From Candidatus Azambacteria bacterium (lineage in GTDB: Bacteria > Patescibacteriota > Minisyncoccia > UBA10092), in NCBI GenBank assembly GCA_016213445.1, contig JACRAJ010000001.1, positions 206,203-270,202 of the forward strand: 64,000 nt of DNA, written 5' to 3'. The position numbers and the translations under genes were made by a program. The first letter of the stretch is position 1. Each line of letters opens with the position of its first letter. Below the pieces are notes generated by a model. It had not been told where the DNA came from. It did not search any database and worked only from the letters and a program-made list of their open reading frames with translations. Of the stretch, positions 17,622 to 21,423 are shown one piece after another.

Positions 17622-19745
17622 TTATTCCAAATGAATTTTGTTTCTAAATTCTGCGAGGCGGGTTTTTAATAACGGATACGCGTTTAAATTGGGGTCGCGG
17701 GAAATTATTTCTTTCGCGGCCGCGCGTGTTTGTTCGACAAGCTTTGCGTCGGTCAGCGAGGCGATGGCCAAATCCGGAAGCCCTGCCTGGCGGACGCCGG
17801 TAAAATCGCCCGGGCCCCTTATTTCCAAATCGCGCTCGGCCAAATCAAAGCCGCTTTGGGCCGATTCAAGAGCTTTCAGCCGCCGGTTTGTTTTATCGGA
17901 CGGCGATTCGGTTAAGAGGAAGCAATAAGATTGATGTTCGCCGCGGCCCACTCGGCCACGAAATTGGTGCAGCGAAGCCAAGCCGAAACGGTCGGCGCCT
18001 TCTATCATCATTATCGTGGCGTTCGGAATATCAATGCCCACTTCGACCACCGAAGTCGCTACCAGAATATCCAGATTTTTATCCAAAAATTCCGACATTA
18101 TTTTTTCCTTTTCTTTCGGTTTCAAACGGCCGTGAAGAAGCCCGATTTTAAATTCCGGAAAAATTTTTTCCTGAAGCCTCTCTTGTTCTTTTTTTGCCGC
18201 TTTTATTTCTCTGGCTTCAAGAAGTTTTTCCGACAGTTTTTTCGATTCCTCGATAAGGGGGCAGACGATGAAAGCCTGGCGGCCTTTTTTAATTTCGGTT
18301 TTTATGAATTCATAGATTCGGTTGCGACCTTCCGGCGGCGCGATTTCGGTTATGATGTTTTTTCGTCCCTTCGGCATTTCCTTTATCAAAGACAAATCAA
18401 GGTCTCCCCAAACGGTCAAACCGAGAGTTCTCGGGATCGGCGTGGCCGACATTGATAATAAATGGGGGACTAATTGCGGCGCGGGGCGCCGCAAAATTTC
18501 GGCTCTTTGATTAACGCCGAAACGATGCTGTTCATCGATAATCGCCAAAGCCAGATTTTTGAAACGGATGTTTTTTTGGATAAGCGAATGAGTGCCGATA
18601 ACTATTTTAATTTCTCCGGAAGCGACTTTTTCGATGAATTTGTTTTTGGAAATTTTTTCGCCTTTATCATTGAAAATTTTGGCTTCCGAAGAAGTTAATA
18701 GGCCGGTGGCAATATTGAATTTGTTTAAAAGCGGCGAAATTTTTTCAAAATGCTGGCGGCTCAAAATTTCCGTCGGCGCCATAAAAGCCGTTTGATAGCC
18801 GTTTGAAGCGGCGAGGCAAGCCGCCATTGCGGCGACGACGGTTTTTCCGCTGCCGACATCTCCTTCCAAAAGGCGATTCATAGGCCGATTTTTCGACATA
18901 TCCTGGATTATCTGCCAGGCGGCTTTTTTCTGGTCGCCGGTCAATTCGAATGGCAACGCGCCGACGAATTTTTTGGCCATTTTCTCGTCGAACGGCACTT
19001 CCGGCGCTTTTTGTTTTTGAAGTTTGAGGCGGCTCTGCCCCATAAAAAGCTGTAAAATAAAAAGTTCTTCAAAAGCGAAGCGTTTTTTGGCGAGCGCGGC
19101 TTTTTCGGCGGTTTCGGGAAAATGCATTTGAGACAAGGCGCTGTTCAAATCCGGAAGATTATTATCTTTTTTAATTTCTTTCGGCAGAGGGTCGGGAATT
19201 TGGGCGACGAAGCGAAGCAAAGGCTTGATTATCAGCCTTAACCAGCGGGAAGTGAGCCCGTAGGTTTCGGGATAAACCGGCACCAATCGGCCGGTATGCA
19301 AGGTTTCTTTTTGTCGGCGCGAATCTCCGTCGCGGCCCGTGATTTCATAAGCCGGATTGGAAAAACAAAGCCGCTTTTTGCTTAAAACGACTTTGCCGGA
19401 AAGATTGATTTGGTTGCCGGGCTGGAATTGGTTTAAAAGATAGGGCTGGTTAAACCAAACCGATTTAATTTCGCCGGTTCCGTCTTCAATCAATATTTCC
19501 GTCAAAACCATGCGCCTTCTGAAAATATTTATGTTTTTGGCGCTTAAAATTTTTCCGCCGGCCGTGGCTTGGCAGTCCGTTTTGATGTCGGCAATAGAAA
19601 TGAAATTTGAAAAATCCTCATAGCGGAAGGGGAAATGGTAAAGCAGGTCCCGAACCGTTTTTATTTTAAGTTTGGCCAGTTTTTTTACCGCCGCCGGCCC
19701 GAAATATTTTATATTTTGAATCGGCGCGTCAAGAATTTGTACCAT
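17622..19745 (-). CDS. recG: ATP-dependent DNA helicase RecG
   Basis: Wedge/OB N-terminus, GDVGSGKTVVA (Walker A), IIDEQHRFGV, helicase C motifs QFRGRVGRG; 707 aa. Confidence 0.95.
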   Translation of the reverse strand: MVQILDAPIQNIKYFGPAAVKKLAKLKIKTVRDLLYHFPFRYEDFSNFISIADIKTDCQATAGGKILSAKNINIFRRRMVLTEILIEDGTGEIKSVWFNQPYLLNQFQPGNQINLSGKVVLSKKRLCFSNPAYEITGRDGDSRRQKETLHTGRLVPVYPETYGLTSRWLRLIIKPLLRFVAQIPDPLPKEIKKDNNLPDLNSALSQMHFPETAEKAALAKKRFAFEELFILQLFMGQSRLKLQKQKAPEVPFDEKMAKKFVGALPFELTGDQKKAAWQIIQDMSKNRPMNRLLEGDVGSGKTVVAAMAACLAASNGYQTAFMAPTEILSRQHFEKISPLLNKFNIATGLLTSSEAKIFNDKGEKISKNKFIEKVASGEIKIVIGTHSLIQKNIRFKNLALAIIDEQHRFGVNQRAEILRRPAPQLVPHLLSMSATPIPRTLGLTVWGDLDLSLIKEMPKGRKNIITEIAPPEGRNRIYEFIKTEIKKGRQAFIVCPLIEESKKLSEKLLEAREIKAAKKEQERLQEKIFPEFKIGLLHGRLKPKEKEKIMSEFLDKNLDILVATSVVEVGIDIPNATIMMIEGADRFGLASLHQFRGRVGRGEHQSYCFLLTESPSDKTNRRLKALESAQSGFDLAERDLEIRGPGDFTGVRQAGLPDLAIASLTDAKLVEQTRAAAKEIISRDPNLNAYPLLKTRLAEFRNKIHLE

Positions 19746-19748
19746 ATG

Positions 19749-19820
19749 TCCCCTCGGTAGGAATCGAACCTACATCGCGAGAACCGCAATCTCGTGTCCT
19801 GTCCATTGAACGACGAGGGG
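19749..19820 (-). tRNA. tRNA-Arg (anticodon GCG)
   Basis: Acceptor CCCCTCG/CGAGGGG (C1-G72), D-arm GTTCAATGGACAGGAC, anticodon loop TTGCGGT, T-arm GTAGGTTCGATTCCTAC; discriminator is 3 nt from the recG ATG. Confidence 0.85.
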
Positions 19821-19841
19821 ATTTTGAACTTACATCGTACC

Positions 19842-20309
19842 TTAAAAAAATCTTTTTCTCAACAAATCTATCAACGATTCTTGTTCTTCTTTTTCCGGCA
19901 GATATTTTTCAAGAATCGCTCTTATTTTATTTTCATCATCGCCGTAAAAGGGCGCGACGAGAAGCGGCGACAAATGCCTTTTGCGCCGCAAAACCAATTC
20001 CGGATTTTTTCCGATATGGGCGGGGAAAATCCAAAAAGATTCAAAATCTTCATACGGGGATATTTTTTTTTCGATATGAAATCCTTCGCCGTCCAAACGG
20101 AAATTAATAAGTTCCGGCTTTTGGTTTTTGTTGGCGTAAATGATAAACATCGCCAAGGCTACTATCGCAATCAGGAGATAATTTTTCAGCAAAATTGAAA
20201 AAACAACGAGCGCGAACGCCAAAATTCCCAAAGCCCAAAACCATTCCGCGCTTTTCGGCGTAAAATCCGGCTCTTCTATTTTCCATTCAAAATTGTTTTC
20301 GATTTCCAT
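19842..20309 (-). CDS. Hypothetical two-TM membrane protein
   Basis: Start moved to ATG 20309 (MEIENNFEWK...) because the longer ORF overlaps tRNA-Ser; WFWALGILAFALVVFSILL and LLIAIVALAMFIIY helices; soluble C-terminal ~85 aa. Confidence 0.6.
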   Translation of the reverse strand: MEIENNFEWKIEEPDFTPKSAEWFWALGILAFALVVFSILLKNYLLIAIVALAMFIIYANKNQKPELINFRLDGEGFHIEKKISPYEDFESFWIFPAHIGKNPELVLRRKRHLSPLLVAPFYGDDENKIRAILEKYLPEKEEQESLIDLLRKRFF

Positions 20310-20398
20310 GGCGGAAGCGGGAGGATTCGAACCTCCGATGCCCTTTCGGGCATACCGCATTTCGAGTGCGGCCCATTCGGCCTCTCTGGCACGCTTCC
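20309..20398 (-). tRNA. tRNA-Ser (anticodon CGA), CCA encoded
   Basis: GGAAGCGTGCCAGAGAGGCCGAATGGG..., anticodon loop CTCGAAA, long variable arm TATGCCCGAAAGGGCATC, T-arm GGAGGTTCGAATCCTCC, ...CGCTTCCGCCA; terminal A is the A of the next ATG. Confidence 0.9.
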
Positions 20399-20463
20399 AC
20401 AATACCCAATTTTAATACTTTGCGGCGGATTTTGCCAAATATTTCTGAACTTGCGCAAATAAA

Positions 20464-20494
20464 AAGGGCGGCGTCAAAGACGCCGCCCATAGCT
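20464..20494 (-). terminator. Rho-independent terminator after the small membrane-protein gene
   Basis: Minus strand GGGCGGCGTC-TTT-GACGCCGCCC followed by TTTTTATTT. Confidence 0.8.
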
Positions 20495-21119: not shown

Positions 21120-21162
21120 AATTTCTCCTTGTTTTAAAAGATCTCGTTTTATTATACGTTAT

Positions 21163-21191
21163 GTTATATCAACTGTAAACAGATTTGTCAA
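21163..21191 (-). promoter_or_regulatory. Consensus-like sigma70 promoter for the response-regulator operon
   Basis: Minus strand TTGACA (21191-21186), 17-nt spacer, TATAAC (21168-21163), ~45-nt leader with SD. Confidence 0.65.
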
Positions 21192-21205
21192 ATTTACCGG
21201 CATTG

Positions 21206-21276
21206 TCCCCCCACTAGGAATCGAACCTAGATCAATTGCTTAAGAGGCAACTGCTTTACCACTAAGCTATGGGGGG
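21206..21276 (-). tRNA. tRNA-Lys (anticodon CTT)
   Basis: Acceptor CCCCCCA/TGGGGGG (C1-G72), TAGCTTAGTGGTAAAGC, anticodon loop CTCTTAA, T-arm CTAGGTTCGATTCCTAG. Confidence 0.85.
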
Positions 21277-21299
21277 CTTTTGCGCGCCCTGTAGGATTC

Positions 21300-21341
21300 G
21301 CCACGGGATGAACCCGTGGCGCCCCGAGTTCATCTCGGGGC
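21300..21341 (-). ncRNA. Two abutting 21-nt hairpins with mutually complementary loops in the tRNA-Arg/tRNA-Lys spacer
   Basis: Plus strand GCCACGGG-ATGAA-CCCGTGGC then GCCCCGAG-TTCAT-CTCGGGGC; loops are reverse complements (7 nt including closing pairs). Confidence 0.5.
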
Positions 21342-21351
21342 GAACCCCTTG

Positions 21352-21423
21352 CGCGCTCTAGAGGAATTGAACCCCTATCACCGGTTCCGAAGACCGGTGC
21401 TCTATCCGTTGAGCTAAGAGCGC
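21352..21423 (-). tRNA. tRNA-Arg (anticodon TCG)
   Basis: GCGCTCTTAGCTCAACGGATAGAGC, anticodon stem CCGGT/ACCGG with loop CTTCGGA, T-arm AGGGGTTCAATTCCTCT, acceptor AGAGCGC. Confidence 0.88.

Follow-up and report, generated by a model that had tools for sequence, protein, structure and literature searches.

tRNA genes abutting ORF155 and recG

The window, a 64,000-nucleotide stretch of a Candidatus Azambacteria genome (G000; 86.6%-complete assembly), carries on its minus strand the gene order tRNA-Ser(CGA), ORF155, tRNA-Arg(GCG), recG. ARAGORN places tRNA-Ser(CGA) at 20398..20312, from its 5' end to a discriminator G, and tRNA-Arg(GCG) at 19820..19749, ending on a discriminator A. Both match Rfam family RF00005 (53.0 and 58.2 bits, respectively; gathering score 29), and each has an acceptor stem with all 7 of 7 pairs formed. 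tRNA-Ser(CGA) is the sole tRNA of its anticodon in G000, and CGU/CGC codons are served by tRNA-Arg(GCG) alone; a tRNA with an ACG anticodon was not found in this genome.

Both tRNAs directly abut a coding sequence. The discriminator G of tRNA-Ser (20312) is followed by two C residues and then by the ORF155 ATG (20309..20307), giving a linker of 2 nt; the encoded CCA (20309..20311, minus strand) thus shares its A (20309) with the first base of the start codon. The discriminator A of tRNA-Arg (19749) is separated from the recG ATG, at 19745, by a 3-nt CAT linker (19746..19748, minus strand) that is identical in five genomes while the first residues of recG differ among them. Gene order and junctions, as seen by ARAGORN, RF00005 and direct reading, are those described in an earlier sequence-only reading of this DNA.

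ORF155 (19842..20309, minus strand; 155 aa) encodes a membrane protein for which two hydrophobic helices are predicted, along with a C-terminal domain. A profile search matched it to no Pfam family, and its atlas matches are 'hypothetical protein' clusters only, with weak PH-like leads; it is conserved across the CPR, where 52 of 61 genomes carry a homologue. recG (17622..19745, minus strand; 707 aa) encodes a protein with RecG wedge, DEAD, Helicase_C and RecG_dom3_C domains. Its ATG has no in-frame start codon before it, a TAG lying at 19772..19770, and the Pfam RecG_wedge alignment begins at residue 8. Homologues of ORF155 and RecG start 0–3 residues from the called Met codons, and we judge both start codons to be sound.

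No SD-like motif precedes either ATG, and linkers of 2–3 nt leave no room for one. There is likewise no TANNNT hexamer at −14 to −9 of either start codon. The two genes thus combine an AUG start with the lack of an SD that is expected of leaderless messages, and in predicted folds of the precursors the cloverleaf is kept and the AUG is unpaired. The leaderless theme that had been noted in the window also holds genome-wide, as a leaderless or SD-poor one. Among 379 genes of G000, an SD-like 4-mer occurs at −17 to −5 in 32, compared with 16 in a control window, and TANNNT occurs at −15 to −6 in 112, compared with 44. The 3' end of the 16S rRNA reads UCUCC, not CCUCC, such that the anti-SD is degenerate. 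A second genome of the class, G028, has no CCUCC, and a third, G020, has the canonical CCUCC but is equally SD-poor and has no tight junctions. We considered whether tight junctions go with loss of the anti-SD but make no such claim, three genomes (with 3, 3 and 0 such junctions in G000, G028 and G020) being too few.

Promoter-like sites and conservation of the junctions

Upstream of tRNA-Ser, at 20456..20488 on the minus strand, lies a hairpin resembling an intrinsic terminator, with 10 pairs, nine of them G-C (stem 20488..20466), followed by the T tract TTTTTATTTG. This putative terminator closes the upstream unit. It is followed by a promoter-like sequence, TTGGCA-18-TAAAAT (20409..20438, minus strand; 10 of 12 consensus matches), that ends 10 nt 5' of tRNA-Ser; an alignment of eight loci from family relatives preserves TGGnAAAA and a hexamer resembling TAnAAT. 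A second such sequence, TTGAGA-17-TACGAT (19834..19862, minus strand; 9 of 12 matches), overlaps the last codons and the stop of ORF155 and ends 13 nt 5' of tRNA-Arg. Five loci of the same genus keep the hexamers TTGAGA/C and TAnnnT with a gap of 20–21 nt, and three loci with a longer gap keep TGgTAAAAT. Between each tRNA and its coding sequence, by contrast, we detected neither a −10-like hexamer nor a terminator at the sequence level, in agreement with the earlier statement that neither gene has an SD or a promoter of its own.

The same layout of promoter, tRNA and coding sequence recurs elsewhere. In G000, tRNA-Glu(CTC) is preceded by TTGAAT-17-TATAGT and followed by a 14-nt linker that contains neither an SD nor a promoter, and the layout is also seen at tRNA-Gln and tRNA-Trp of G028. 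A promoter upstream of the tRNA serving a promoterless coding sequence, as in operons of the tufB type, is found here at the level of consensus matches. The locus had been described as a single operon; with a conserved promoter-like site before each tRNA, two tandem units are probably the better description, with read-through from the tRNA-Ser unit into the tRNA-Arg unit possible. Each tRNA and the coding sequence behind it are likely co-transcribed. Since each such transcript would begin with the tRNA, its coding sequence cannot owe its translation to coupling with an ORF further upstream.

Junctions peculiar to this locus and absent from relatives would, by its own terms, have refuted the sequence-only reading; they are instead conserved in relatives, and other tRNA–gene pairs resemble them. 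The linker between tRNA-Arg(GCG) and recG is ≤9 nt in 10 of the 19 relatives' loci that hold recG, namely those of 9 of 12 family genomes and one genome of another family. Linkers of ≤7 nt join tRNA-Val(GAC) to an RluA-like gene in 6 of 27 loci and, in a further one of the 27, tRNA-Leu(TAG) to rluD; these seven tight junctions span four families. Some relatives have 7–9-nt linkers, and some have looser spacing at the recG and RluA-like junctions. A survey of all tRNA-to-gene distances in three genomes of the class, a check that the sequence-only reading had proposed for this genome, gave linkers of ≤9 nt at 3 of 43 tRNAs in G000, 3 of 46 in G028 and 0 of 47 in G020. In G000, all three remain when the limit is a coding sequence (ATG, ≥80 aa) starting ≤5 nt past the discriminator. 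In G028, Fpg starts with MPELPEVE 7 nt past tRNA-Arg(CCG), tRNA-Gln is followed after 1 nt by the start of a ROK-like kinase, and CCA and ATG overlap at tRNA-Trp. All tabulated tight junctions have ATG starts, the only start codon covered by the search. To our knowledge, and as in G020, such junctions are unusual elsewhere. Given three among 43 tRNAs and their conservation in relatives, we consider the tight junctions of G000 to be beyond chance.

Proposed release of the messages and competing explanations

We conclude that the arrangement is real and conserved, and that it is a near-leaderless one that probably depends on processing. Our favoured reading, in which belief and doubt are about evenly balanced, is one of units of promoter, tRNA and coding sequence in which the tRNA acts as the 5' leader and cleavage frees a near-leaderless mRNA. 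RNA polymerase would start a few bases before each tRNA, which would in effect be the 5' leader of the message. RNase P would trim the 5' side of the tRNA, and an endonuclease would cut at or just past the discriminator, or past C74, freeing the tRNA for addition or repair of CCA. The same cut would leave an mRNA with a 5' monophosphate and its AUG 0–3 nt from the new end, and this RNA would be translated in the SD-independent way that prevails in this SD-poor lineage. At tRNA-Ser the cut must precede the A of CCA, since the start codon would otherwise be destroyed; hence, repair of CCA would be required there. Linkers of 7–9 nt, together with the 14-nt linker of tRNA-Glu, indicate that recognition of a strictly 5'-terminal AUG would not be the whole story. 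That a cut is made, where it falls, which enzyme makes it and that its product is translated are inferences from the DNA; a sequencing-run search lists the G000 sequence in three DNA runs of one groundwater study and in no RNA run.

The inventory of processing enzymes fits this scheme in part. G000 has rnpA (75.3 bits); RNase P RNA was not found in its incomplete assembly but turned up in 22 of 25 relatives, among them all 5 from the same genus. No enzyme but RNase Z is known to cleave precisely past the discriminator, and no match to its profile (TIGR02651) exceeded the cut-off in G000 or in the 61 genomes of the class, with partial RNase Z-like ORFs in G021, G044 and G050 only. Thus, of the three genes that the earlier reading had proposed to look for, rnpA was found, RNase Z was not, and rnpB is represented in relatives. 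Three candidate RNase Z matches were set aside: one in G005, a genome of the same genus (94.8 bits), is a probable contamination, lying on a 1164-bp high-GC contig beside a PyrR-like ORF; a 296-aa MBL protein of G000 is a ComEC-type domain adjoining the ComEC membrane part; and the other G000 match is RNase J. A CCA nucleotidyltransferase is present (291.9 bits; NCBIfam cut-off 290), as is a second PolyA_pol-family protein, and 38 of 43 tRNAs in G000 lack an encoded CCA. RNase Y, RNase J and PNPase are present; searches of G000 for RNase E/G and for RNB-family exonucleases found none. A beta-CASP RNase occurs in 50 of 61 relatives and is missing from the G000 assembly. We consider the nuclease to be an enzyme other than RNase Z; candidates are RNase Y, RNase J and the beta-CASP RNase seen in relatives. 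Against the processing reading stand the failure to find RNase Z, RNase E/G and RNB enzymes, the gaps for beta-CASP RNase and RNase P RNA in G000, the 7–9-nt and 14-nt linkers, and the class genome with no tight junctions among its 47 tRNAs; short linkers could also owe something to deletion bias in a compact genome.

The strongest competitor, which we regard as rather unlikely, is co-transcription without precise release, with SD-less internal initiation on an uncut or 5'-trimmed chimera of tRNA and mRNA. Initiation would take place on an A/U-rich unpaired stretch past the acceptor stem, with the tRNA fold perhaps protecting the 5' end against RNase J. The tRNA would be recovered later through cuts by RNase Y or RNase J, 3'-to-5' trimming by PNPase and addition of CCA, such that a transcript would serve first as message and then as tRNA, or as just one of the two. 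In its favour, PNPase, RNase Y, RNase J and a CCA enzyme are present but no RNase Z was found; SD-less initiation is general in the lineage, the AUGs are unpaired in the predicted folds, and the 7–9-nt and 14-nt linkers fit any short unstructured leader better than a strictly leaderless start. The 30S subunit, however, normally accommodates roughly 12–15 nt of upstream mRNA, for which there is no room when the AUG lies 1–3 nt from an acceptor stem of 7 stable base pairs. The recG linkers also fall into two groups, of 2–8 nt and of ≥24 nt; the promoter scan covered the short group and the 24-nt case, L030, which carries a −10-like TANNNT hexamer. Moreover, tying the maturation of the only CGU/CGC reader to decay of a message seems costly.

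A neutral origin of the tight junctions by genome shrinkage, or their creation by wrong start calls, with no role in expression, is improbable. G000 is very compact (ORFs of ≥100 aa cover ~393 of 426 kb), one genome of the class has no such junctions, and some relatives have loosened the same ones. The starts, however, are fixed by homology (the RecG wedge at residue 8, MPELPEVE in Fpg, and the conserved N-terminal sequences of ORF155 and RluA), expression must come from this context since the genes are intact and conserved, and the junctions persist across genera and families despite divergence of the neighbouring codons. About as improbable is a promoter hidden within the tRNA gene that would make the coding sequence as a primary, triphosphate-ended leaderless mRNA independent of the tRNA: these genomes do have many leaderless-type promoters, with TANNNT ~6–9 nt ahead of the ATG, also at looser tRNA–gene spacers such as L030 and several in G028, but none of the 22 junctions with linkers of ≤9 nt (26 junctions were tabulated) has TANNNT starting at −14 to −9, which falls in the G+C-rich strand of T stem and acceptor, and the sole hexamer upstream of recG begins at −27, within the T arm.

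A broader form of the processing reading, which we put forward tentatively and with more doubt than confidence, is that CPR bacteria of the Minisyncoccota type use tRNA genes class-wide as 5' cassettes, an RNase Z-independent cut yielding a repairable tRNA and a leaderless mRNA with a 5' monophosphate. The cutter would perhaps be the conserved CPSF73-like beta-CASP RNase, acting past the discriminator or past the almost universally encoded C74, and the mRNA would be read by ribosomes with a degenerate or lost anti-SD.

Relation to known systems

The arrangement had been likened to mitochondrial tRNA punctuation, reportedly described by Ojala, Montoya and Attardi in 1981. The likeness holds in that tRNAs abut coding sequences at 0 to a few nt, excision would leave an mRNA with no usable leader, and initiation is SD-independent. 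It does not extend to the RNase Z (ELAC2) step, for which no enzyme was detected in G000 or, above the cut-off, in any of the 61 genomes. In addition, the units described here have a promoter-like site per tRNA and complete stop codons, involve roughly 3 tRNAs out of the 45 or so in a genome, and are known from their sequence alone. Among mixed operons of tRNA and mRNA in E. coli are thrU-tyrU-glyT-thrT-tufB, tyrT-tpr and secG-leuU, with spacers of tens to about a hundred nt and a normal SD. As there, a promoter upstream of the tRNA would serve the protein gene and a precursor would be cut for both products; here, however, the spacers are 1–9 nt and no leader with an SD is found.

Primary leaderless mRNAs of Actinobacteria and Deinococcus have an AUG at or near the 5' end and are SD-independent, according to the parts of the reports consulted (PMC4633059, PMC3848588, PMC4007540). 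Their signature, a −10 element just before the ATG, is also enriched in G000, but their 5' ends arise by transcription initiation and bear a triphosphate, whereas ends made by cleavage, as proposed here, would bear a monophosphate. Propionibacterium acnes has no obvious tRNase Z, and in the sections consulted its tRNA 3' ends are shown to be cut endonucleolytically, in some cases between the two C residues of an encoded CCA; the CCA enzyme is proposed to repair such ends (PMC3848588). A cut within CCA followed by repair is exactly what the overlap of tRNA-Ser and ORF155 would need; those sections, however, report no protein gene that starts at the cut sites, and P. acnes has machinery of the RNase E type, for which no counterpart was found in G000. 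In Nanoarchaeum, Thermococcus and plants, dicistronic units of tRNA and snoRNA are released by RNase Z, as far as the consulted part of the source describes (PMC4247193). There, too, the tRNA is a processing handle that frees a functional RNA downstream, but the product is a small non-coding RNA of archaea or eukaryotes rather than a bacterial mRNA. Our literature word searches returned no paper on bacterial protein genes that begin directly where a tRNA ends and whose messages are processed leaderless mRNAs; supplementary site tables of PMC3848588 and PMC4681348 may hold cases.

For gene calling in these genomes, the junctions imply a rule that start codons may touch or overlap a tRNA. The precursors of tRNA-Arg with recG and of tRNA-Ser with ORF155 are simple substrates for a nuclease hunt and for the study of SD-independent initiation where the 16S anti-SD is degenerate or has been lost. 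If the cassette reading is true, free-living bacteria would have a counterpart to mitochondrial tRNA punctuation. If the messages are indeed processed to a near-leaderless form, non-organellar bacteria would make translatable messages by excising tRNAs, an endonuclease distinct from RNase Z would cut tRNA 3' ends in lineages in which, as in G000, most tRNAs lack an encoded CCA, and initiation of the leaderless type would work on RNAs with a 5' monophosphate across a large radiation of uncultured organisms.

Two tRNA-CDS units on the minus strand

On the minus strand, a strong terminator-like hairpin (20488..20466) is followed by a promoter-like site, TTGGCA-18-TAAAAT (20438..20409), directly upstream of tRNA-Ser(CGA) (20398..20312). 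The encoded CCA of this tRNA (20311..20309) runs into ORF155, an ORF encoding 155 aa (20309..19842). A second promoter-like site, TTGAGA-17-TACGAT (19862..19834), overlaps the ORF155 stop and lies directly upstream of tRNA-Arg(GCG) (19820..19749), after which comes recG (19745..17622). The first junction reads discriminator G, CC, ATG, the A of the start codon also being the A of CCA; the second reads discriminator A, CAT, ATG. ARAGORN predicts nine tRNAs in the window, all confirmed by Rfam, and the acceptor stems of tRNA-Ser(CGA) and tRNA-Arg(GCG) each form 7 of 7 pairs; the gene order and both junctions described in the sequence-only reading are exact. That reading also held that neither protein gene has promoter-like sequence of its own, and indeed we found no -10-like hexamer at a usable distance before either CDS.

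In an alignment of eight family loci, the tRNA-Ser site is conserved. The site before tRNA-Arg is kept in five same-genus loci as TTGAGA/C plus a TAnnnT hexamer, with a gap of 20-21 nt; three loci with a longer gap between ORF155 and tRNA-Arg have TGgTAAAAT in place of the TTGAGA/C-type site. We interpret the locus as a tandem pair of promoter-tRNA-CDS units, with both promoters predicted from sequence. There is no terminator between the first and second units, so read-through from one into the other is possible. The earlier proposal of a single tRNA-punctuated operon stands as to gene order and possible read-through, but the promoter-like site at each tRNA makes two units more probable. Nearby (window 21151-21423), a near-consensus promoter-like site, TTTACA-17-TATAAT (21179..21151), comes after tRNA-Arg(TCG) and tRNA-Lys(CTT), and a 153-aa response-regulator-like ORF starts 31 nt past the -10 hexamer of this site; the tRNA-to-CDS spacer there is ordinary.

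The recG frame has an upstream in-frame stop (TAG, 19772..19770), and its next canonical start lies only at about residue 79. The RecG_wedge profile alignment begins at residue 8, and homologues in the family share an N-terminal M-x-x-(I/F)-L at the same position. Of 61 genomes of the class, 52 have an ORF155 homologue, and the close homologues start within 2-3 residues of the ORF155 methionine. No Pfam family matched ORF155; an atlas search identifies it as a hypothetical membrane protein found across the candidate phyla radiation (neighbours in Minisyncoccota and Saccharimonadota), with weak PH-like leads only.

Conservation of the junctions

We sampled 30 loci around ORF155 homologues (L007-L036). 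tRNA-Arg(GCG) follows the homologue in 27 of them, across many families of the class, with a gap from the ORF155 stop of ≤12 nt in 10 of the 27 and of 1-4 nt in six. This adjacency (19820-19844 in the window) is a protein-gene/tRNA-gene linkage of unusual depth. recG comes next in 19 loci. The linker, counted from the tRNA discriminator to the ATG, is CAT (3 nt) in five genomes, 8 nt in two loci, and 6 nt, 7 nt (in another family) and 2 nt in one locus each; one further locus has 24 nt with its own -10-like hexamer, and the remainder have about 100 nt or more. Tight linkers (≤9 nt) therefore account for 10 of the 19 loci, spanning 9 of the 12 genomes of the family. The 2-nt case is in a relative, G008 (L014:2072-2720), where the recG frame is disrupted downstream of the start: the ORF that opens at the ATG is <80 aa long, and alignment to RecG resumes no earlier than residue 90, reflecting a frameshift or assembly error. 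Between tRNA-Ser(CGA) and ORF155, the linker measures 2 nt in G000, the genome that holds the window; three same-genus genomes have 7-14 nt there, and the other loci 22-100 nt.

An independent second junction shows the same pattern. In G000, a CAAAT linker joins tRNA-Val(GAC) to the ATG of a gene for a 245-aa RluA-like pseudouridine synthase. We compared 27 loci around homologues of this gene, three of them truncated by a contig end: four family genomes have tRNA-Val(GAC) linkers of 2-5 nt, and at this junction the linker consists of CCA alone in G024 and of CCA followed by 4 nt in G022. An rluD-type gene starts 4 nt after tRNA-Leu(TAG) in G025.

The sequence-only reading had proposed surveying all tRNA-to-CDS distances in the genome. 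Applying one script to three genomes (ATG starts, ORFs of ≥80 aa, linkers measured from the discriminator), we found tight linkers at 3 of 43 tRNAs in G000, 3 of 46 in G028 (complete, 651,549 bp) and 0 of 47 in G020 (three contigs, 758,561 bp). G000 also has a 14-nt linker between tRNA-Glu(CTC), which a good predicted promoter precedes, and a 278-aa membrane protein. In G028, 7 nt separate tRNA-Arg(CCG) from Fpg, whose start (MPELPEVE) is certain because its N-terminal proline is catalytic; a ROK-like kinase starts 1 nt past tRNA-Gln, and CCA and ATG overlap at tRNA-Trp. Elsewhere in G000 (G000:C1:62540-62790), the 3' part of tRNA-Lys(UUU) (T arm, acceptor strand and CCA) is duplicated 31 nt downstream, with an anticodon-arm copy upstream; a 323-aa epimerase-like gene begins 13 nt past this second CCA. 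An integration scar or a rearranged tRNA could account for the arrangement.

The G000 assembly, from groundwater, comprises 426 kb in two contigs (86.6% complete, 43% G+C, 43 tRNAs). Its five Arg tRNAs have anticodons CCG, TCT, CCT, GCG and TCG; tRNA-Arg(ACG) was not found in the whole assembly, and tRNA-Arg(GCG) is the sole reader of CGU and CGC.

Translation start context

Start-context figures are rough, the gene sets being the first ATG of long ORFs. Counted at -17..-5, with -40..-28 as control, SD-like 4-mers precede 32 of 379 genes in G000 (control 16), 81 of 617 in G028 (control 63) and 78 of 668 in G020 (control 45); all three genomes are SD-poor. G is scarcer before starts. TANNNT at -15..-6 is enriched in G000 (112/379 versus 44/379), a leaderless-transcript signature, with A/T richness near starts pushing the count up. 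The G000 16S rRNA 3' end (on C2; L001:1490-1560), ...CAUCUCCUUUCU, has UCUCC where CCUCC, the usual anti-SD core, is expected. The G028 16S tail (C1 around 389,650-389,725, minus strand) has no CCUCC past helix 45, and the G020 end (C2:61377-61446) is canonical. G000 encodes a protein of 392 aa containing multiple S1 domains; it scores under the NCBIfam S1 cut-offs.

Proposed separation of tRNA and message

Since tRNAs need maturation, each tRNA must be separated from its message. Both would be released by a single cut, made at position 73 or 74. In the recG unit, the tRNA could then proceed to CCA completion, and the mRNA leader would be 2-3 nt long. In the ORF155 unit, the cut would have to fall before the A of CCA, such that the mRNA would begin C-AUG or CC-AUG and tRNA-Ser(CGA) would need CCA repair. 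Cuts of this kind are reported in P. acnes, which has no obvious tRNase Z, including between the two Cs of an encoded CCA (PMC3848588). In predicted precursor folds of both units, the cloverleaf is retained and the AUG is unpaired. In G000, CCA is encoded by only 5 of 43 tRNAs, and C74 by 37 (in the window, for example, at 19748, 20311 and 21204), followed in 30 by a non-C, mostly A. C74 is also encoded in 32/39 and 52/61 tRNAs of relatives' fetched loci, a biased sample; the bias is weaker in G028 (16/46). This hints that 3' maturation ends at C74 or involves a cut after it.

The sequence-only reading had named rnz, rnpA and rnpB as genes to look for. rnpA is present in G000; RNase Z was not found there, nor was RNase P RNA, which 22 of 25 relatives have. 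G000 also encodes RNase Y (614 bits), RNase J (539 bits), PNPase, an HD-domain CCA nucleotidyltransferase (291.9 bits against a cut-off of 290) and a further PolyA_pol-family protein; we did not find RNase E/G or RNB-family exonucleases in it. Across 61 genomes, RNase Z has no match at the family cut-off; partial RNase Z-like ORFs occur in three. One match, in G005 (L037, G005:C20:1-1164), was rejected: it is a C-terminal fragment beside a PyrR-like ORF on a high-GC 1.1-kb contig in a low-GC genome, probably contamination of the bin. A CPSF73-like beta-CASP RNase of about 450-490 aa (Beta-Casp and RMMBL domains) occurs in 50 of the 61 genomes and 4 of 5 in the genus, for example at L152:1337-2695 (G002), G028:C1:10806-12122 and G020:C1:62577-63989. 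It was not found in the G000 assembly, where RNase J is the only beta-CASP protein found; this RNase and RNase P RNA are probably missing through assembly gaps.

In the main rival to cleavage, translation would start on the intact tRNA-mRNA chimera, and the tRNA would be recovered as the message decays. Our failure to find RNase Z fits this rival, as do the SD-less linkers of 7-14 nt, but it accords poorly with an AUG lying 1-3 nt from a stable helix. That the ORF155 and recG junctions are pure artefact is unlikely, because the starts are fixed by homology. A promoter inside the tRNA gene that drives the CDS is also unlikely: TANNNT starting at -14..-9 is found in 0 of 22 tabulated junctions with linkers of ≤9 nt.

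A literature search returned no description of such a tRNA-CDS arrangement in bacteria. Mixed tRNA-mRNA operons of E. coli are similar, but they carry a leader and SD, which are lacking here. Functionally, the arrangement would correspond to mitochondrial tRNA punctuation, but it differs in that RNase Z was not found and each unit has its own promoter-like site. We conclude that the arrangement is well supported as conserved genomic architecture, with a putative processing mechanism.
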